DNA of 37,337 nucleotides from a virus: positions 1 to 37,337 of the IMG/VR virus record IMGVR_UViG_3300049076_000010. One strand, 5' to 3'. Both the position numbers and the translations under genes were made by a program. The notes under the pieces were generated by a model. The model made no database searches. It was not told the DNA's origin and saw nothing but the letters and a program-made list of their open reading frames with translations. This document shows, piece by piece, positions 1,966 to 37,337 of this stretch. Each line of letters starts with the position of its first letter. The first letter of the stretch is position 1.

Positions 1966-2043
1966 AGTATCTAGCCTGTAGCACCATCCGAAAGGATTGA
2001 TTAGGCCAAGCTGAAACTTGGGGTGTTATGGAGTAGGTATTTA
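1966..2043 (+). repeat. Conserved non-coding element, copy A (partner at 33386-33459)
   Basis: Three colinear blocks are shared with copy B: AGTATCTAGCCTGTAGCAC (19/19), TTAGGCC (7/7) and GTGTTATGGAnTAnGTATTTA (19/21). It ends 10 nt before the ATG at 2054. Confidence 0.7.
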
Positions 2044-5081: not shown

Positions 5082-6442
5082 GGTAGATATTCCTTGATTG
5101 TGATTCTGGAAGCCATTACACCGCCGTATATTTGCACACCAGCACCGCCATTGAATGTGGTTGTGCCAGCCAGGTTGCCACCAGCCCTAACTCTAAAGGT
5201 CGTTGCAGATGTAGTGCCTGCGGTCATGATGTAGGTGAAATTAATGCAGGTATTACCGCCAGCGGTGGCAATCAATGATCCAGCAGCGGCTAATGCATTG
5301 GCAGTGGCATCCTGAAATAAGGCTGCGCCCATATTGTTAACAACCGATGATGCAACAATGATGGTGACGGCTATTTCTAAGGTGCTGGACGCATTCGTTG
5401 GAGTAATAGCAAGGCTTAAGTATTGGTCGCCTTCTGTGATCTGGGGAATGGTGTTATCAAAAGGGAGTAAGGTGGTTCCTGTAGCAACGGTGCCAGATTG
5501 TGAAGTAACGCTTTGCGCAAGTTTTTTACTCGTGTAATCAACCAAGGCAAGCCCACTATATTTCTTAGGGCGCAACCTAAACTGTGTCGTGGTAACTGCG
5601 GTGACTTCTACTTCATCACCTGCCGCACCTGTAAAGCTGACAACGCCATCAATCAGCATATTTGCGCCAGCCGTGAAACTTGCTGCGCCTGCAAGTATCA
5701 ATGTTCGTGTAACCCCTGCTTGTGGTGCTGCTGCAAATCCGGTTGCTGTAGTCGTGCCTGTGTAGTTGATATTGTTGGAAGTGTTAGTCCAGATGTCAGG
5801 GGTAGTAGCGGATGCGACTGTAGAGATGGATTCATTAATTGCATCGCCACTGCGTAGATTTAATTTGGGGATGCTGCTATTGGTCGGTGTTAAAATTCCG
5901 TATTGCACTGCTGATAAACCGCTATCTAATACGCTTGAACCATCCATAAATACAGTAACAGTTGTTAACGCGCCAAACACGCTAGCAGTGATTGTCCCGT
6001 ACACCGTCCCTGCCGTGACCGTGGCTTTAATCCTGCGGCCTACTTCAAATGCTGTGGTTTGATCGCCTGGCAGAGTGAATTGTGTGGCAGAAACATAGGT
6101 AGGCGTAACCCCTGAAACTAACCATTGGTCGATGGTTAAAGATGCGTCGTTAATGCCAGTGACGTTATCTATATCCCAAATAGGCGAGACAGGCGGGTCG
6201 CTATCGGTCGAAGCGGTAAACACAAACTTATAGCTTAAACCTTCCGTTAACCAGATAGGCTGAGTAGGTTCGCCACGGCTATCCAATATGATAGGGTTGG
6301 TTTGCGGTGTTAAGCCATCAGCCCCTGTATAGGTGGTTTGTTTTGTGCTTGAGCCTGCTGCATAGCTGAATAATTTAGCCCCGCTTGCAGGGATGCCGTT
6401 AATAAATTGGGCTGACAAAATAACTGGCGAAAGCTTAGCCAT
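5078..6442 (-). CDS. Tail fibre / receptor-binding protein
   Basis: 454 aa. The N-terminus (MAKLSPVILSAQFINGIPASGAKLFSYAAGSSTKQTTYTGADGL...NPIILDSRGEP) is the common phage fibre/spike N-terminal pattern. The rest is T/S/G/A-rich and beta-like. Last structural gene. Confidence 0.7.
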   Translation of the reverse strand: MAKLSPVILSAQFINGIPASGAKLFSYAAGSSTKQTTYTGADGLTPQTNPIILDSRGEPTQPIWLTEGLSYKFVFTASTDSDPPVSPIWDIDNVTGINDASLTIDQWLVSGVTPTYVSATQFTLPGDQTTAFEVGRRIKATVTAGTVYGTITASVFGALTTVTVFMDGSSVLDSGLSAVQYGILTPTNSSIPKLNLRSGDAINESISTVASATTPDIWTNTSNNINYTGTTTATGFAAAPQAGVTRTLILAGAASFTAGANMLIDGVVSFTGAAGDEVEVTAVTTTQFRLRPKKYSGLALVDYTSKKLAQSVTSQSGTVATGTTLLPFDNTIPQITEGDQYLSLAITPTNASSTLEIAVTIIVASSVVNNMGAALFQDATANALAAAGSLIATAGGNTCINFTYIMTAGTTSATTFRVRAGGNLAGTTTFNGGAGVQIYGGVMASRITIKEYLP

Positions 6443-21408: not shown

Positions 21409-21437
21409 AAAAAACCCTATGAGGATTAGTCATAGGG
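21409..21437 (-). terminator. Strong intrinsic terminator in the late leader (tR'-like)
   Basis: The minus strand reads CCCTATGA-CTAATCC-TCATAGGG followed by TTTTTT. The stem is a perfect 8 bp. It lies about 300 nt downstream of the Q-like gene and 100 nt upstream of the first late gene. Confidence 0.75.
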
Positions 21438-21685
21438 TTGTAGTCATCTAGTACGCCGTCCAGCGTCCGAGAAAGTTAGCTTTTATACTAACAAGAAATA
21501 GTTATTGGCCTTTTATCGCTCGCCTCAAAGGTTAGGCCGACTTGTATACAAATCTTTGTTCGCAATAACTATTGCTTCTTAATACATAAATTTAGGGGGC
21601 AACTATCCTATCGTGGATTCCGCAGCCCTGTTTTTTGTCTAATGTAGATACGGTGATGTAAGTATGCGCCTACTTTTTAATAAGC

Positions 21686-21735: not shown

Positions 21736-22245
21736 CTATCTTTCCATCTTCTGCTTAACCGTATGTAAGCCATTGCGTTGCTCATTAGTGAATATAGATT
21801 GTACTTCCATTAACCTACGCTCCCAGAATTTAAGATAGATTTCCAGCGATACGCCTATGGCCTTGGCACGTTGCATGTCTGTGTGTCTGTGTAATCCAGT
21901 TCCATTACAGGTTTCACAGCGGATTAGTTTCTTCTCTATCAATGCTTCTTTACGTCCGTTACAAGTCTTGCAGAAGTTGAATGCTGATTCATATATCACT
22001 TGGTTACATACTCTTAACAGGATTTGTTTGTCGCATTTGATCTTGCGTCCTGCTTGGCGTGCGAGTGCATAGGTTAATTCTTTGTGGGCGGTTGCTTGTA
22101 ATCCGTCTATAAATCTTACTGCTGCCATGCCGATAGGGGAACTGATACCTGCTATACCCATCGCACCGATTAGGTCGATGCTGGTGTGTGATTCTTTCTG
22201 CTGTAGGCTCTTTGAGTGGATTGCGGTTGCAAGGATTTGTCTCAT
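21736..22245 (-). CDS. Q: Lambda-type Q late-gene antiterminator
   Basis: 169 aa. IGAMGIAGISSPIGMAAVRF parallels lambda Q MAAMGMAQSQAGFGMAAF. Paired zinc motifs CKTCNGRK...CETCNGTG parallel lambda Q CRDCHGTG...CGRCKGVG. Followed by a leader containing a terminator. Confidence 0.75.
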   Translation of the reverse strand: MRQILATAIHSKSLQQKESHTSIDLIGAMGIAGISSPIGMAAVRFIDGLQATAHKELTYALARQAGRKIKCDKQILLRVCNQVIYESAFNFCKTCNGRKEALIEKKLIRCETCNGTGLHRHTDMQRAKAIGVSLEIYLKFWERRLMEVQSIFTNEQRNGLHTVKQKMER

Positions 22246-23936: not shown

Positions 23937-24380
23937 TTATCGTGGCCTTTCGCTGAATAAAACGCCCATACTTGCACCATCTGCATGGATTTGGTCTAGG
24001 TATTGTGAGAATCCATATTTGGTTAAATCTGTCGTACTGGCTACTAGGATAAGATTGCCTGCCGGGTCTGTGTTCCATTTCTTGTATGATTCTGGATGTT
24101 TCACTAGCTCAAACAGATACGGGTCGTTTTCTTCTGGCAGATACAAGGCTTTAAAATGCTCATGCCATACTTTGTCAATGAACTGACGGCCTTCAACGTA
24201 AGCCTGCTCTGCAATATCCTTCAATGGCCCAGCCCACATCAAGTCATTGGCGCTTTGTGAGCGCGCTTTAACTGGTTCACGCAAGACCACTTCAATGTTA
24301 TCTGGTGCATTGTCGATAGCCGCTTTCGCGGTATCACGTTGGAGTTGGCCTGTTAGTTTGATGATGCGTTGTTTAAACAT
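23937..24380 (-). CDS. ninB: NinB (lambda Orf-like) recombination mediator
   Basis: 147 aa (lambda NinB is 146 aa). RSQSANDLMWAGPLKDIAEQ parallels lambda RSLDQNRKLWACLGDVSRQ. Confidence 0.65.
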   Translation of the reverse strand: MFKQRIIKLTGQLQRDTAKAAIDNAPDNIEVVLREPVKARSQSANDLMWAGPLKDIAEQAYVEGRQFIDKVWHEHFKALYLPEENDPYLFELVKHPESYKKWNTDPAGNLILVASTTDLTKYGFSQYLDQIHADGASMGVLFSERPR

Positions 24381-25629
24381 CTTGAACCTCTAAGTTTTTG
24401 ATTTTCCAGTCTGTGCGGCGGCGTTTCATTAAATCAACGTATTTTTGGTATGCGCTAGACTTGGTTGGACTGAACCCCAAACCTTTGCACCAGTAATCGT
24501 TTTTAAGAATCGTCTTAACAACCTTACGCCATGATGGGACTTTGCCTAATGATTCAATCTTACGATCTGCTTTATCTGGTATACCGTCCGGATAACCACG
24601 CTTACTCCACCAGTTTAAATACACCGCTAGTTTGTTTTTGTAGTGTTCTCCTGTCGCGTTAGGCATGGTGTTTAATAAATGCATGGCGAAAGATTCAAAC
24701 GTATGGCCTGCTGGCAAATCAATCGAGTAGTTGCCCATGACCGCGCCTTTGTCGTTGGCATATAGCGCTCCTGTATTCGCACCAGCTACCCTTAAACAGA
24801 CTTTCGCCCACATCTGCGGCTCTACGACTTGGTATAACCACAAACCTTTCCTAGCTTCATCCCCGAATGGCTCACAGATACGCATTTGGCTTAACTTGAT
24901 TCCAGCCTGATGCATACGGTCATACAAAGCGTTGTATGGTTTGTTAAACTTACCCAAATAAGTCCAGATGTCCTTAGTTGCCATGTCGTAGATTGGATAT
25001 ACATTCCAGCAATCGTCAATGACTTTGGTTGTCCATGCTTTTTCTTGGAACTTGTCTTTCTCTCTCGCTACCGTGCGGAATCGGTTTAGGCTTTCATCTG
25101 CTCTTATGCCAACAAAGCAAGCACAGGGTTTACCATCGGCATACCATTGCCCGAACAACGGCACGAATTCTTCAAACGGCATACCTTCGTAATAAAATGG
25201 GAAGTAAGCCATATCCGTGATAGACATTGCATCCGGCTGACGTACCCATAGCTCTTGTTTCTGACTATCCCAGGAAGTCCACTCCGGCTCAATCTGGCTG
25301 CAAGCATTCCAGGTTTTAATTGGTAAGGCTATCCAGTAAGGTTCAATCCATTCTGCATATTCCTCAAACATCTGCTTGGTAAAATCTATCGTCAAACCAA
25401 TCTGGCATTCCCAGTCTAAAAACATACAGCCAATTTTACGGTTGCGTTTTTTGGCTTCTTCCATGACTAAGTGCAACATGACAGTGGAATCTTTACCGCC
25501 AGAAAAACTTATGTATATTTTTTTAAAGTTATCAAATGTAAATTCAATGCGCTGTTGCGCTGCGGTTAAAGTATCAATTCCCAATTTAATTTTTGGCATA
25601 GTTATTTTTCCAATGTTCTTTGGCTTCAT
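24373..25629 (-). CDS. PAPS-reductase-family PP-loop protein, IbrA-like
   Basis: 418 aa. PP-loop SFSGGKDST. Long C-terminal extension, as in IbrA/DUF3440-type proteins. Start may be Met11 (25599). Confidence 0.75.
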   Translation of the reverse strand: MKPKNIGKITMPKIKLGIDTLTAAQQRIEFTFDNFKKIYISFSGGKDSTVMLHLVMEEAKKRNRKIGCMFLDWECQIGLTIDFTKQMFEEYAEWIEPYWIALPIKTWNACSQIEPEWTSWDSQKQELWVRQPDAMSITDMAYFPFYYEGMPFEEFVPLFGQWYADGKPCACFVGIRADESLNRFRTVAREKDKFQEKAWTTKVIDDCWNVYPIYDMATKDIWTYLGKFNKPYNALYDRMHQAGIKLSQMRICEPFGDEARKGLWLYQVVEPQMWAKVCLRVAGANTGALYANDKGAVMGNYSIDLPAGHTFESFAMHLLNTMPNATGEHYKNKLAVYLNWWSKRGYPDGIPDKADRKIESLGKVPSWRKVVKTILKNDYWCKGLGFSPTKSSAYQKYVDLMKRRRTDWKIKNLEVQDV

Positions 25630-26044
25630 CTGCCGCTTGGTTTGCTAATGCTTGTTGCTGCTCATTTAGCATGGCCCATGCCAGTCTGGTTAAATCCTCT
25701 GGAGCATCATGATTTACCGCGCAACCTGCATGCCCTAGCCACGCCTGATGATTGATAACTGATGCACTTAAGTTAACATCTGATGAATTAGGCCAAGTAT
25801 CTACAGCTTTAATCATTGCCGCTTTAAACGCTGGAATATTCAACATTAAATCTCTGGATTGAATAATCTTTTCCCGCCTTTGCTTAACTGGGATTTGCTT
25901 CCACATATTGCCTTGATATTCTTCCATGTTGGTGAAGTGGTGATAGACGCGCTTAATCTTCAATGTCGCCCACCATTTCAATATCTGCGTAAGATTCGGC
26001 TTCCCATGCTTCGGTGAATTCTTCATTGTTGAATAACGAGGCAA
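25586..26044 (-). CDS. Hypothetical protein between the ParB-like and PAPS-reductase-like genes; start uncertain
   Basis: 152-aa ORF overlapping the ParB-like gene by 92 nt, so an internal Met (for example 25927) is likely. The motif NHQAWLGHAGCAVN is reminiscent of the N4 gp49 / Sf6 gp66 family. Low certainty. Confidence 0.45.
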   Translation of the reverse strand: MPRYSTMKNSPKHGKPNLTQILKWWATLKIKRVYHHFTNMEEYQGNMWKQIPVKQRREKIIQSRDLMLNIPAFKAAMIKAVDTWPNSSDVNLSASVINHQAWLGHAGCAVNHDAPEDLTRLAWAMLNEQQQALANQAADEAKEHWKNNYAKN

Positions 26045-26612
26045 GGCCAGTAATCTGCTGTAGCCTTAACACTTCATCAGCTTCCATGCCTAACTGTTTA
26101 GCTATTTTTTCATCAGACCAAAAGCGGCGTTTAAGCTCTACTACAATCTCGCTCATTGAATCGACTTTGTGCTTACCTCTTGCTCGATTGTGGCGAATGG
26201 TAGAGGCCATGCGGTCGCCTTTATCTTCCTGGCTTTGGCGAATCTGCACCAATGGTAAATAGCCGTGAATCCTTGCTTGAATATCTGCACATTCCTTGCC
26301 TACGCGGTGGCGGTGAAATCCATCAACCACTTCGTACTTATCCTCACTTGGCATGGATACGATCGGCTGCGTATACCCGTCAGCATCAATTGATACTCTT
26401 AGTAATTCCATTTCTACCGGAGCTACAGAGTTAGGGTTATAGTCATTAGAAAATACCGTATCGTTTTTTACCCATTTTACAAAATCTACTGGCTCTGTTT
26501 TGAACGGGCTTAAATCGTGAATAACTTGGCGTAATGTGTTGATTAAATCAACTTTGCTATCAAGCGTTTCTGATGATTCTATAGCTCGTTTAATTTGTTC
26601 TTGTAAGCTCAT
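25953..26612 (-). CDS. ParB/sulfiredoxin-domain protein, IbrB-like
   Basis: 219 aa. ParB-box-like VVDGFHRHRV and downstream STIRHNRARGKH. Confidence 0.7.
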   Translation of the reverse strand: MSLQEQIKRAIESSETLDSKVDLINTLRQVIHDLSPFKTEPVDFVKWVKNDTVFSNDYNPNSVAPVEMELLRVSIDADGYTQPIVSMPSEDKYEVVDGFHRHRVGKECADIQARIHGYLPLVQIRQSQEDKGDRMASTIRHNRARGKHKVDSMSEIVVELKRRFWSDEKIAKQLGMEADEVLRLQQITGLASLFNNEEFTEAWEAESYADIEMVGDIED

Positions 26613-32683: not shown

Positions 32684-32863
32684 CTATTCACCAAGCTTTC
32701 TAAAATGATTAGCTAACTTTTCAATCAAGCTTGCTTTTCCATCACCAGTATTAATGATGTTGTAAAGATTCTGCTTGCTCGTACCTATTGCGCTTGCTAC
32801 TGCTGGCACATTTATTTGCTCGTCTTTAAGCTTGCGCAGCACATATTCTAATAGCGTTTCCAT
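32684..32863 (-). CDS. Cro-like small helix-turn-helix regulator (59 aa)
   Basis: Hand-translated: METLLEYVLRKLKDEQINVPAVASAIGTSKQNLYNIINTGDGKASLIEKLANHFRKLGE*. HTH at VPAVASAIGTSKQNLYNIIN. RBS ggagaagcaATG. First gene after the divergent promoter region. Confidence 0.6.
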   Translation of the reverse strand: METLLEYVLRKLKDEQINVPAVASAIGTSKQNLYNIINTGDGKASLIEKLANHFRKLGE

Positions 32864-32887
32864 TGCTTCTCCTTAACATTTAACCAA

Positions 32888-32916
32888 AGTATAATTGACT
32901 ATCGGTAAAAGCGCAA
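32888..32916 (-). promoter_or_regulatory. Early promoter for the minus-strand operon
   Basis: The minus strand reads TTGCGC-17 nt-TATACT, about 25 nt upstream of the Cro-like ATG. Confidence 0.5.
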
Positions 32917-32950
32917 GCGGTTTATGTTAAAACTTTCTTGTCTTAGGGTA

Positions 32951-32978
32951 TTGACATTAAGTTAAATATCGTTAAACT
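32951..32978 (+). promoter_or_regulatory. Early promoter for the plus-strand operon
   Basis: The plus strand reads TTGACA (32951-56), a 16-nt spacer, then TAAACT (32973-78). Divergent from the Cro-like promoter. Confidence 0.55.
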
Positions 32979-33059
32979 GGGAACCACTGAGACGCAACTC
33001 GTAAGATGAAATAAGCGTCAGCTAAGTAATCAGGACGGTTGTTTCTCAGTGTTTTATAG

Positions 33060-33222
33060 AATCTGTATTAAGTAGGTGTAATACGTAGGCGATACGGTGG
33101 AATTTGTATTGAACATGAATTTCTCATGTCTCCATCAAAGGCCCGATGGGTGAAATTAATAATGCTACACAGTTAAAGGCAACAAGCTAGGTTCGCATCT
33201 AGCCACCTACTTAATACAGATT
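33060..33222 (+). ncRNA. Candidate structured RNA domain (or MITE/inverton-like DNA element) closed by a perfect 19-bp inverted repeat
   Basis: aatctgtattaagtaggtg (33060-78) is the exact reverse complement of cacctacttaatacagatt (33204-22). The 125 nt between them contain four local hairpins (33084-96, 33114-28, 33132-49, 33186-203). No ORF. Confidence 0.35.
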
Positions 33223-33385
33223 TGCTAATCATTTAAAACAGGTGGATATAACTATCATTAAGGGGATAGATAGTAATTTCCAAAGGTTACTTTTATATGT
33301 CCACCGCTTTTAGATGATTAGAAAGAATCCTTGCAAGGTAGTTAGAAATTATAGCGGTTTAATCCGTACGTGACGATTTCACGTG

Positions 33386-33459
33386 AGTATCTAGCCTGTA
33401 GCACATGGAGGTAAGCCGAGAGGTTAGGCCGTAGAAGTGTGTTATGGACTATGTATTTA
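33386..33459 (+). repeat. Conserved non-coding element, copy B (partner at 1966-2043)
   Basis: Carries the same three colinear blocks as copy A. It ends 20 nt before the ATG at 33480. Confidence 0.7.
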
Positions 33460-33479
33460 GATGATTTAATAGGAGAGAG

Positions 33480-33662
33480 ATGATGGCAAAAACCAAGATA
33501 GAGAATTTTACTTATTTGGCAATAGATTTGGATGGGTACACAGGGCTTGGTGAAACAGTTAAAGACGCATGCCATGCCCTTGAAGAAAGAAGCGAAGGTT
33601 ATGTTCGTGACTTTACTTTTTACAGATTAACTAGAATCAATGTTGAATTGATAGAGGTTTAA
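33480..33662 (+). CDS. Hypothetical protein (60 aa), first gene of the plus-strand early operon
   Basis: ORF track. RBS aggagagagATG. Confidence 0.5.
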   Translation: MMAKTKIENFTYLAIDLDGYTGLGETVKDACHALEERSEGYVRDFTFYRLTRINVELIEV

Positions 33663-36659: not shown

Positions 36660-37319
36660 ATGAGTATCGCTACCATGATATTAGGACAATCAGGCACAGG
36701 TAAATCTACCAGCCTACGCAATATGCAACCCGAACAAACTTTACTGATTCAGGCAGTCAAAAAACCATTACCTTTCCGCGCTAAAGAATGGGCTTATTAC
36801 GACAAAGAAACCACGCCTAAAGGCAATCTATTTGTCACTGATAACTCAGCACAGATCATTAAAATAATGCAAGCCACGCAGCGCCCCATCATTATCATTG
36901 ATGACTTCCAGTATATTCTGGCAAATGAATTTATGCGCCGTGTTTTAGATAAAGAAACAGGCAATGCTGCTTTTGCAAAATACAATGAGATTGCCCGTAA
37001 TGCCTGGGATATTCTTATGGCAGCGTCAAACCTTGAAGGCAATAAGCGCGTGTATATCTTAGGCCATACGCAGGAAGATGACAATGGCAAGATTAAGGCT
37101 AAAACTATCGGCAAACTATTGGATGAAAAGATTACCGTAGAAGGCTTGGTAACGCTTGTATTACGCACGCACGTAATTAATGGGGCCTACATATTCAGCA
37201 CTAAAAATAATGGTGTGGACACCGTTAAAACGCCTTTGGGTATGTTTGAGGACGAGCATATCGAAAACGACTTGTTAGCAGTCGATAAAGCTATCACAGA
37301 GTATTACGACATTAAATAA
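36660..37319 (+). CDS. P-loop ATPase, Sak4/AAA_24-like recombination protein
   Basis: 219 aa. Walker A GQSGTGKST. Walker B IIIIDDFQ. GGAG RBS. Followed across the circular junction by the SSB-like and Gp157-like genes. Confidence 0.55.
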   Translation: MSIATMILGQSGTGKSTSLRNMQPEQTLLIQAVKKPLPFRAKEWAYYDKETTPKGNLFVTDNSAQIIKIMQATQRPIIIIDDFQYILANEFMRRVLDKETGNAAFAKYNEIARNAWDILMAASNLEGNKRVYILGHTQEDDNGKIKAKTIGKLLDEKITVEGLVTLVLRTHVINGAYIFSTKNNGVDTVKTPLGMFEDEHIENDLLAVDKAITEYYDIK

Positions 37320-37337
37320 TTTAGGAGTTATAACATG
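37211..37337. repeat. Terminal overlap copy 2, identical to 1-127
   Basis: See the first feature. Confidence 0.9.

Follow-up and report, generated by a model that had tools for sequence, protein, structure and literature searches.

The window, i.e. the whole stretch of 37,337 nucleotides analysed here (IMG/VR record IMGVR_UViG_3300049076_000010), is a circularly closed phage contig whose bases 1-127 recur at 37211-37337. It has a G+C content of 43% and the gene layout of a lambdoid, P22-like phage. The early run of the - strand starts with a cro-like gene (32684-32863) and continues with O-like, primase, helicase, ParB, PAPS-reductase-like, NinB and NinG genes up to a Q-like antiterminator gene (21736-22245), past which the same strand carries a leader with a canonical terminator and then the P22-like structural genes. 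The early operon of the + strand extends from 33480 across the contig junction to ~2927. It is the equivalent of the PL operon and contains small unknown genes together with those of Sak4, SSB, Gam and a 202-amino-acid secreted Gly-rich protein. No N-like protein was recognised in the window, and no near relative of the phage was found among 50,697 GenBank phage records (megablast, 8 kb query).

Two segments of this + strand early region had been described in the initial annotation as copies of a non-coding element of ~75 nt, made of three colinear blocks separated by variable spacers. Both copies are present in the same orientation: the 19-mer AGTATCTAGCCTGTAGCAC occurs exactly twice, at 1966 and 33386 on the + strand, with 0 chance copies expected in shuffled sequences even when 3 mismatches are allowed, and the third block, GTGTTATGGA, is found at 2023 and 33439 and nowhere else. 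The spacers measure 16/19 and 15/8 nt, as first described. The size of the element was underestimated, the unit being about twice as long and comprising an upstream hairpin and motif besides: 38-49 nt 5' of each of the copies originally delimited there is another conserved block, which consists of GAAyCC, a short hairpin and GGTAGTTAG, in this order. Hairpin and upstream motif form one unit, since every locus found via the upstream motif had the long hairpin downstream; at locus L024 the contig ends before the long hairpin could be seen. The repeats are copies of a previously undescribed structured RNA cassette of ~140 bases, located between early genes of uncultured freshwater phages.

Four parts make up the cassette. 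A short hairpin (SL1) is followed by the motif GGUAGUUAGAUAU and then by a variable spacer, and last comes a long hairpin (SL2) whose base (AGUAUCUAGCC / GGAGUAGGUAUU) is near-invariant and whose top varies freely. From the 5' to the 3' end, the order is (A)GAAyCC - SL1 - GGUAGUUAGAUAU - spacer - AGUAUCUAGCC - variable stem and apex - GGAGUAGGUAUU(UAAA). The two window copies are 136-143 nt long and units across the homologues 107-198 nt; the spacer between SL1 and SL2, usually with a hairpin of its own, accounts for 3-81 nt, and the variable stem and apex for 29-86 nt. A covariance model (R1) built from 44 copies retrieves both window copies and no third one anywhere in the window, including the early operon of the - strand.

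Copy A (1912-2047, + strand; R1 score 82.6 bits, E 1.5e-17) follows the gene of the 202-residue secreted protein within the + operon, as had been noted: the unit starts just past the TAA stop of that gene (1911-1913) and ends 7 nt before the ATG at 2054. SL1, predicted by RNAalifold, is CCUCGUACGGG (1919-1929), a variant of the common CCUUGCAAGG. It is followed by the 3' half of the upstream motif, GUUAGGUAA (1932-1940), a competitor strand complementary to 1967-1975 with 8 of 9 pairs. Block 1, AGUAUCUAGCC (1966-1976), is invariant in 42 of the 44 aligned homologues and provides the 5' strand of the lower stem (1966-1973), two bases of the internal loop (G1974 and C1975) and the first base of the upper stem (C1976). 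The variable part of SL2 (1977-2029) is taken from the minimum-free-energy (MFE) fold, the upper stem of which, 1976-1985 with 2022-2031, covaries; its apex comprises two small hairpins, includes TTAGGCC at 2001-2007 and resembles that of locus L038 only. In block 3, GGAGUAGGUAUU (2030-2041), roles can be assigned from the fold and the pair counts: GG closes the upper stem, AG lies in the internal loop and the lower stem takes its 3' strand from UAGGUAUU (2034-2041). Further 3' come UAAAG, a Shine-Dalgarno (SD) sequence (AAGGGA) and the ATG at 2054.

Copy B (33321-33463, + strand; R1 score 96.8 bits, E 7e-21) stands at the 3' end of a structured + strand leader of ~340 nt, in keeping with the earlier remark that it closes a long early leader, and the ATG at 33480 is 17 nt further on. 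Its SL1, CCUUGCAAGG (33329-33338), has the consensus form, and its competitor strand, GUUAGAAAU (33341-33349), is complementary to 33387-33395, again with 8 of 9 pairs. The variable spacer (33350-33385) is predicted to fold into two small hairpins, in the GCGGUUUAAUCCGU and CACGUGACGAUUUCACGUG region. Block 1 (33386-33396) is again AGUAUCUAGCC, and block 3 (33446-33457) reads GGACUAUGUAUU. The variable part of SL2 between them (33397-33445) is 86% identical to the corresponding segment of locus L059, while the spacers and flanks of these two units are unrelated despite their alike tops. An 11-nt direct repeat, TTTAGATGATT, flanks copy B at 33309-33319 and 33456-33466, its downstream copy overlapping the last two bases of block 3. 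Together, copies A and B bracket the entire Sak4-SSB-Gam module.

Further copies, which the initial annotation had proposed to look for in phage and metagenome sequences, were obtained by scanning IMG/VR for exact matches to block 1, to block 3 or to the upstream motif, and each of these three patterns brought back the entire arrangement. One metagenome scan yielded 43 further loci. After removal of duplicates, 51 distinct copies are available from freshwater viral and metagenome contigs with a G+C content of 32-47%; the set is called freshwater because a Trout Bog Lake sample appears in the name of at least one contig. According to the covariance model, a related locus carries about one unit, with tandem pairs in L032 and L044. 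No known family accounts for the element: Rfam 15 returned no match at gathering thresholds over the whole window, sensitive scans of both copies gave noise only (E 0.16-5.8) and tRNAs were the sole matches in 15 related loci. Among cultured phages, a blastn search of 50,697 phage records with the whole unit retrieved only chance 19-23-mers in genes of Bacteroides phages, and a literature search by sequence string returned unrelated primers only. The commonest 18-mer, GTATCTAGCCTGTAGCAC, which spans variable stem bases, has one chance match in 185,579 species genomes, within a coding gene of Lederbergia whose product we take to be MarR-like.

In both window copies, blocks 1 and 3 pair to form a single long hairpin, GUAUCUA with UAGGUAU and CCUGUAGCAC with GUGUUAUGG; the z-scores of these folds against shuffled sequences are -3.7 and -3.1. 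The pairing of CCUGUAGCAC with GUGUUAUGG, proposed from the two copies alone, is real and corresponds to the lower part of the SL2 upper stem. The blocks lengthen it by 8 more bp (GUAUCUA / UAGGUAU), and among 44-51 homologues it shows changes from G.U to A-U to G-C as well as full compensatory changes; the pair first proposed as G.U is A-U in 20 sequences, G.U in 10 and G-C in 9. The two hairpins pointed out in copy A, ATCC-GAAA-GGAT and CCAAG-CTGAAA-CTTGG, are both part of its MFE fold. As for the middle block, TTAGGCC does occur in both copies, but it is found 8 times in the window and is not conserved among the relatives. It is part of one lineage of interchangeable SL2 tops, at the variable apex, and is common only to particular lineages such as the L038-like and L059-like tops.

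Covariation strongly supports SL2. Over the 44-sequence alignment, 91.4% of the cells of SL1 and SL2 are paired, and 13 pairs display compensatory changes on both sides, amounting to 105 cells; none of 500 shuffles reaches the observed pairing and covariation values. Pairing falls to 33-52% when the partner strand is slid. RNAalifold, run without a given structure, recovers both of these hairpins, SL1 and SL2, and 10 of its pairs carry double changes. Conserved G.U pairs and substitutions of the R-opposite-U and Y-opposite-G type indicate that the SL2 fold is specific to the transcribed strand. The initial interpretation, partly supported as a whole, was right in favouring an RNA-level element over a simple promoter.

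The near-invariant part of SL2 consists of the lowest 8 bp, the 2x2 internal loop above them (GC/AG) and the C-G pair that closes it; higher up, only the pairing is conserved. The continuous main stem measures 17-33 bp (median 23) and its 5' strand at least 20 nt in 51/51 copies, including the shortest one (52 nt). The top of SL2 is variable yet, in the predicted folds, always keeps at least about two helical turns. The hairpin potential of SL1 is preserved across the variants CCUUGCAAGG, CCUGCGCAGG, CCUCGUACGGG (that of copy A), CCCGUAAGGG, CCCUGCAGGG and CCCUGUGCAGGG. Two other pairings were considered and rejected. A helix closing the 5' and 3' ends, GAAUCCUUGC with GUAGGUAUU, appears in the MFE fold of L002 and is broken by the A/G variation at alignment column 186 and by the SL1 variants, all of which are compatible with SL1 and the lower stem of SL2. 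Pseudoknots joining the spacer to the 3' tail, to the 5' end or to SL1 perform no better than shuffled spacers.

A second conformation of the base is available. The motif GUUAGAUAU, directly 3' of SL1, is complementary to GUAUCUAGC, which is the 5' strand of the SL2 base, and this alternative helix is 91% paired over the 44 sequences. Most of its columns are invariant, so that covariation support for it is weak by itself, and the case for the helix comes mainly from conservation together with two divergent copies. Where variation does occur it keeps the pairing, with U to C opposite G and A to G opposite U. In the divergent copies L017 and L052b, all the changes in block 1 are compatible with both helices: in L017, A to U at position 101 is matched in both partners, a three-way concerted change, and in L052b the changes C to U, G to A and A to G in block 1 still pair with the unchanged upstream motif. 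When each state is forced, the median difference between them is 3.2 kcal/mol over 48 copies; the two states lie within 3 kcal/mol of each other in 22/48 copies and the alternative is favoured in 9/48. In units with a short spacer, the MFE structure combines the alternative helix with the upper stem. As both pairings survive in two divergent copies and are predicted to be nearly isoenergetic, the cassette RNA is probably bistable, with two mutually exclusive states.

The genomic position of the unit follows transcription: all 51 copies are co-directional with the flanking early genes. The description of the element as lying just upstream of a small ORF applies to both window copies and about half of the others, in which an SD and an ATG are found 12-35 nt 3' of the unit, but it is no general rule. 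More consistently, a gene ends just 5' of the unit: its stop codon lies 3-6 nt from SL1 in ~18 of the first 30 copies. Homologues of the 202-residue secreted protein of the window are encoded directly 5' of the unit in several loci. On the 3' side, a strong sigma-70 promoter follows the unit in 2/51 cases (L008 and L012), operator-like palindromes follow it in L014, L023, L029 and L030, and in L017 a tRNA-Met gene begins 11 nt downstream. A partner gene does not emerge from these neighbourhoods: no ORF family is present in more than 13 of 73 loci, and Pfam and PHROGs searches with the small proteins of the window gave nothing relevant. The initial annotation had also related copy B to an 11-mer at 21529-21539, in the late leader. 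The match is exact, but similarity does not extend beyond it, and the link is attributed to chance since ~0.6-1 such coincidence is expected over all 64 11-mers of the element.

Known transcription signals do not describe the cassette. Neither window copy was called in a terminator scan, the SL2 base is rich in A-U and G.U pairs, and its tail is UAUU(U)AAA. No canonical terminator was found within 400 nt of 50/51 units or in the + operon of the window; such terminators are used elsewhere by cassette-bearing phages, as in L026 and in the late leader of the window. A sigma-70 promoter reading of the upstream motif was discarded, as TTGCAA is not conserved and no -10 element lies at a fixed distance; the TTGCAA of SL1, part of the covarying hairpin, is replaced in variants by CTGCGC, TCGTAC or CCGTAA. 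A sigma-54 promoter was discarded too, the GG element 5' of TTGCA being missing. Inspection of the conserved blocks reveals no boxA (GCUCUUUA-like), and the early operon of the - strand has no copy of the unit, two observations that do not fit a lambda-type nut site, of which each early operon has one, made of boxA and, after it, a short boxB hairpin.

The cassette is also a place where genomes are joined. Four segments, the upstream flank, the spacer, the SL2 top and the downstream flank, were compared pairwise, and many pairs of loci are at least 85% identical in only one of the four. L001 and L009 have both flanks alike and different interiors; L007/L034, L014/L026/L029 and copy B/L059 share only the SL2 top, and L001/L013, L016/L073 and L057/L059 only the spacer. 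Between loci, most of the proteins encoded on either side of the unit show no homology. This segment-wise sharing identifies the conserved blocks as recombination breakpoints, and this recombination is real whichever RNA function applies. The initial annotation had set a mobile gene-boundary sequence lacking structural covariation against a role at the RNA level. The boundary behaviour is present, but it comes with strong covariation and does not refute an RNA function for that reason.

Direct repeats abut the unit exactly in 2/51 copies, 11 nt in copy B and 18 nt in L021. No empty, uninserted site was found among the fetched loci, and the 21-mer predicted for such a site has chance matches only. 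The ORF starting at 33480 has no relatives in IMG/VR, being encoded by the window's own contig alone. A MITE or IS-derived repeat, expected to have terminal inverted repeats, a target-site duplication of fixed length and interiors of common descent, was rejected, given that flanking repeats are restricted to these two copies, with lengths of 11 and 18 nt, and that the interiors are unrelated between lineages.

Our best guess, a tentative one, is that the cassette is a gated intercistronic signal for RNA processing, or "punctuation", of the RNase III type, that doubles as a recombination linker. It would be transcribed within the early (PL-like) operon as a composite cis-acting RNA, the full-length SL2 being the target of a double-strand-specific host factor, most likely RNase III. 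By cleaving SL2, this factor would divide the polycistronic early RNA where cistrons or modules meet, leaving a protective hairpin on the upstream message and freeing the downstream RNA, which may bear a ribosome-binding site, a tRNA or the next regulatory region. During transcription, the competitor strand would pair first and thereby delay or gate formation of the cleavable two-turn helix. As the same ~45 conserved nt would be present in many co-infecting phages, the conserved patches could serve homologous recombination, by which flanking genes and sub-segments would be swapped. An endonuclease site fits best because of the two or more helical turns with an internal loop, the intercistronic or leader positions, the tRNA neighbour and the absence of terminators. 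The lengths of the SL2 stem agree with the ~20 bp or more of coaxial double-stranded RNA expected of an RNase III site, and the unit lies in intercistronic or leader positions on the gene strand of the early transcript. RNase III does not normally need a conserved sequence, so that it does not by itself account for the near-invariant lower stem and loop; this conservation suggests a partner more specific than RNase III and is the main weakness of the model. Furthermore, SL1 and the spacer hairpins play no part in it, and the units located directly before promoters fit a terminator or an insulator equally well.

The latter point leads to a self-contained transcription attenuator or insulator, in which the full SL2 followed by UAUUU would end or reduce transcription and the upstream strand, possibly controlled by a phage or host factor bound at SL1, would serve as an internal anti-terminator. 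The two mutually exclusive helices reproduce the classic 1:2 / 2:3 layout, copy B is located between the early promoter region and the first gene, and several units are the sole structured element from the end of an operon to a strong sigma-70 promoter/operator region, with no canonical terminator nearby. With no N-like protein recognised in the window, such a device would provide the step from immediate-early to delayed-early expression in an N-less lambdoid phage. SL2 lacks terminator features, however, with its A-U/G.U-rich base and a tail that is just UAUU(U)AAA; the same phages use textbook terminators with a GC stem and a U-run, and the genes after copy A have no promoter of their own. 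Attenuation is considered unlikely. A protein platform shares with it the position of copy B downstream of the early promoter region: the cassette would be read by a specific protein, either a regulator of translation or RNA stability recognising the lower stem and loop, or RNA polymerase as with the put RNA of HK022. The near-invariant imperfect duplex with its conserved 2x2 loop exceeds generic double-stranded RNA needs, and the cassette offers two stem-loops in early operons. No candidate partner gene was found, though, terminators that could be read through are missing from the + operon and from the surroundings of 50/51 copies, some units lie 5' of promoters and not 3', and the SL1-SL2 spacing of 3-81 nt departs from the compact, V-shaped put of ~70 nt (PMC9378689), so that this reading is given a rather small chance. 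A new self-cleaving ribozyme, with a core formed by the conserved single-stranded and junction nucleotides and with variable peripheral helices, is highly improbable. It would explain the freely variable helices (spacer hairpin, SL2 top) around a conserved core and the location between phage genes, sometimes in tandem, as for many small ribozymes; conversely, no Rfam ribozyme family was matched even at E values up to 10, no tertiary pairing was found, the spacer-tail pseudoknot being no better than shuffles, and sequence variation contradicts the 5'-3' closing helix.

Mosaicism raises the question of an element acting primarily at the DNA level, either as a linker for recombination or as an insertion cassette of the non-autonomous kind, along the lines of T4 PeSLs, integron attC sites or REP/MITE sequences. 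Its ends would be kept for exchange or insertion, and its hairpin would have no role except, at most, that of a folded single strand. The mosaic breakpoints at the conserved blocks, a conservation far higher than that of the flanking genes, the direct repeats that abut copy B and the L021 unit, the tandem units of L032 and L044 and the bracketing of the Sak4-SSB-Gam module by the window copies all speak for it. Flanking repeats are nevertheless limited to two copies and unequal in length, no empty site was found, the window encodes no recognisable transposase, integrase, reverse transcriptase or HUH protein, and no gene is common to most loci. The orientation strictly follows transcription, and the G.U pairs and wobble-tolerant substitutions point to selection on RNA. 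Moreover, homologous recombination at any conserved sequence yields the same mosaic as a by-product. A primarily DNA-level role is also considered unlikely. Less plausible still, a bolder form of the idea sees in the cassette a new mobile, structure-defined phage element that would insert between genes via a single-stranded or RNA intermediate and carry the RNA punctuation signal with it. Such an intermediate would explain flanking duplications of variable length (11 and 18 nt), and the folded bistable base would be recognised rather than the sequence. If true, this would be the phage counterpart of integron attC sites or REP, driving module exchange among freshwater lambdoid phages.

The cassette adds a new, well-supported structured RNA, documented by 51 copies and by strong covariation, to the short list of conserved non-coding elements of phage early regions, and does so from uncultured freshwater phages, in which gene regulation is almost wholly uncharted. 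Rarely is it so plain that a single short sequence is a structurally selected RNA and at the same time a physical seam of genome mosaicism, with sub-segments exchanged like parts. If its two-state design gates RNA processing or read-through, it would represent a compact and portable regulatory part; if the cassette is itself mobile, it would define a new class of phage genetic element.

The processing signal that we tentatively favour has its closest counterparts in the RNase III hairpins of phage early operons, namely the T7 early-region sites (R1.1) and the site in the lambda N leader. Like the cassette, these hairpins span about two helical turns, contain an internal loop and lie in leaders or between cistrons, with several related copies per early operon just 5' of ribosome-binding sites, and the lambda N-leader site and copy B both lie in the leader of the leftward early operon. 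The sequences are unrelated, and cleavage of the cassette by RNase III is putative. Unlike the T7 and lambda sites, the cassette possesses an extra upstream hairpin and a competitor strand giving a second conformation, and its base is near-invariant across unrelated phages.

REP/BIME, ERIC and Correia elements are transcribed palindromic repeats of bacterial chromosomes, REP being present in many copies per host chromosome and mobilised by a RAYT transposase. With these and with attC sites the cassette shares an imperfect palindrome at the 3' ends of genes that is transcribed as an mRNA hairpin; as in attC, the ends are conserved and the centre is variable, and as in REP, the ends contain GTAG. 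Some Correia elements are cut by RNase III. Unlike REP and attC, the cassette was found in phage genomes, in 1-2 copies, with no associated transposase or integrase. An assignment to integron attC sites was rejected, the base AGUAUCUAGCC / GGAGUAGGUAUU differing from the RYYYAAC/GTTRRRY cores and no integrase being found among the window proteins scanned.

The put RNA of phage HK022 resembles the cassette as a cis-acting element of early transcripts, formed of two stem-loops and present in two copies per lambdoid genome (PMC9378689). It binds the zinc-binding domain of the RNA polymerase beta-prime subunit and suppresses pausing and termination (PMC9378689). Put is compact, at ~70 nt, with one copy per early operon and terminators downstream (PMC9378689). 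The cassette was not assigned to it: units are 107-198 nt long with 3-81 nt between the hairpins, both window copies belong to one operon, and no terminators were found in that operon or near 50/51 units. The start-associated sequences (SAS) and extended SAS of Cluster K mycobacteriophages are, like the cassette, conserved phage-specific motifs located where genes start, within the non-structural genome half (PMC3203893). In both, imperfect inverted repeats enclose a variable spacer, copies in the host genome appear to be lacking, and there is no known function. Neither the sequences nor the hosts are related. SAS is found 11-19 times per genome and overlaps the ribosome-binding site (PMC3203893), whereas the ~140-nt cassette is present in 1-2 copies per genome and leaves the SD outside.

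The PeSLs of T4-type phages, finally, combine a strong sigma-70 early promoter with a G/C-rich terminator hairpin (PMC2839356, PMC4122927). They have in common with the cassette a stem-loop, small accessory genes nearby and homologous exchange that shuffles the flanking genes (PMC2839356, PMC4122927); indeed, the segment-wise mosaic observed here is what is expected of an intergenic cassette with flanking-gene exchange. Unlike a PeSL, the cassette holds no -35/-10 pair at fixed spacing in its conserved blocks and is followed by a promoter in only 2/51 cases. Its hairpin is not terminator-like, and its RNA structure covaries.

The copies of the structured RNA cassette (51 distinct copies) differ in the arrangement of their parts. 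The small module GCCGAGAGGUUAGGCCGUAG, a GNRA-loop hairpin, occupies positions 33410-33436 of the window. Its position varies from unit to unit: in some, such as that of locus L059, it is located in the top of SL2, the long hairpin of the cassette, while in that of locus L047 it lies in the spacer, the variable stretch preceding SL2. On comparison of these sequences, sub-modules therefore appear to move between positions inside the cassette.

An exact 11-nt direct repeat, TTTAGATGATT, is found at each end of copy B, the second cassette of the window (33309-33319 and 33456-33466), and the cassette of locus L021 has an 18-nt counterpart. These flanking repeats look like a target duplication or the scar of a single-crossover insertion, but only two of the 51 copies possess one. 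The gene directly 5' of copy A, the first cassette of the window, lies at 1305-1913 on the plus strand; its 202-aa product carries a signal peptide and contains Gly-rich repeats. Several unrelated contigs (L033, L055, and L071) also have a gene for a homologue of this protein immediately 5' of the cassette, so the two may move as a pair. The downstream side is occupied differently at other loci. At L017, which carries one of the two most divergent copies, a tRNA-Met gene (5388-5462 of that locus, minus strand) starts 11 nt past the cassette end. At four loci (L014, L023, L029, and L030), the palindromes GTTCACGTnACnTGAAC and the repeat GTTGAAC are located just 3' of the cassette and resemble operators at which a repressor would act in an immunity or regulatory region.

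Upstream of copy B, the early leader (32985-33320, plus strand) is predicted to be exceptionally structured, with an MFE of -114.3 kcal/mol vs -72.6 for shuffles (z = -7.6) and three large domains in the predicted fold. Its last hairpin builds its outer stem with the upstream 11-nt repeat flanking copy B. No homologue of this leader was found among the fetched cassette loci.

Since both ends of the window carry the same 127-nt sequence (1-127 and 37211-37337), the contig is, by this identity, circularly closed at 37,210 bp, and the plus-strand operon crosses the junction. The scan of genes, which also took in the 600-nt divergent control region (32863-33480), yielded no recognisable cI-like repressor or integrase; the phage may be virulent, or lysogeny genes may be present yet unrecognised. 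The early-right operon (minus strand) contains a PAPS-reductase-like and a ParB-like gene (24373-26612), a pair frequently linked in phages to DNA modification or anti-defence. The late leader, 3' of the Q-like gene (21736-22245), holds a canonical intrinsic terminator (21413-21439, minus strand) composed of a 10-bp stem followed by UUUU. A terminator in the late leader after a Q-like gene is the usual lambdoid layout, that of Q-dependent late transcription.
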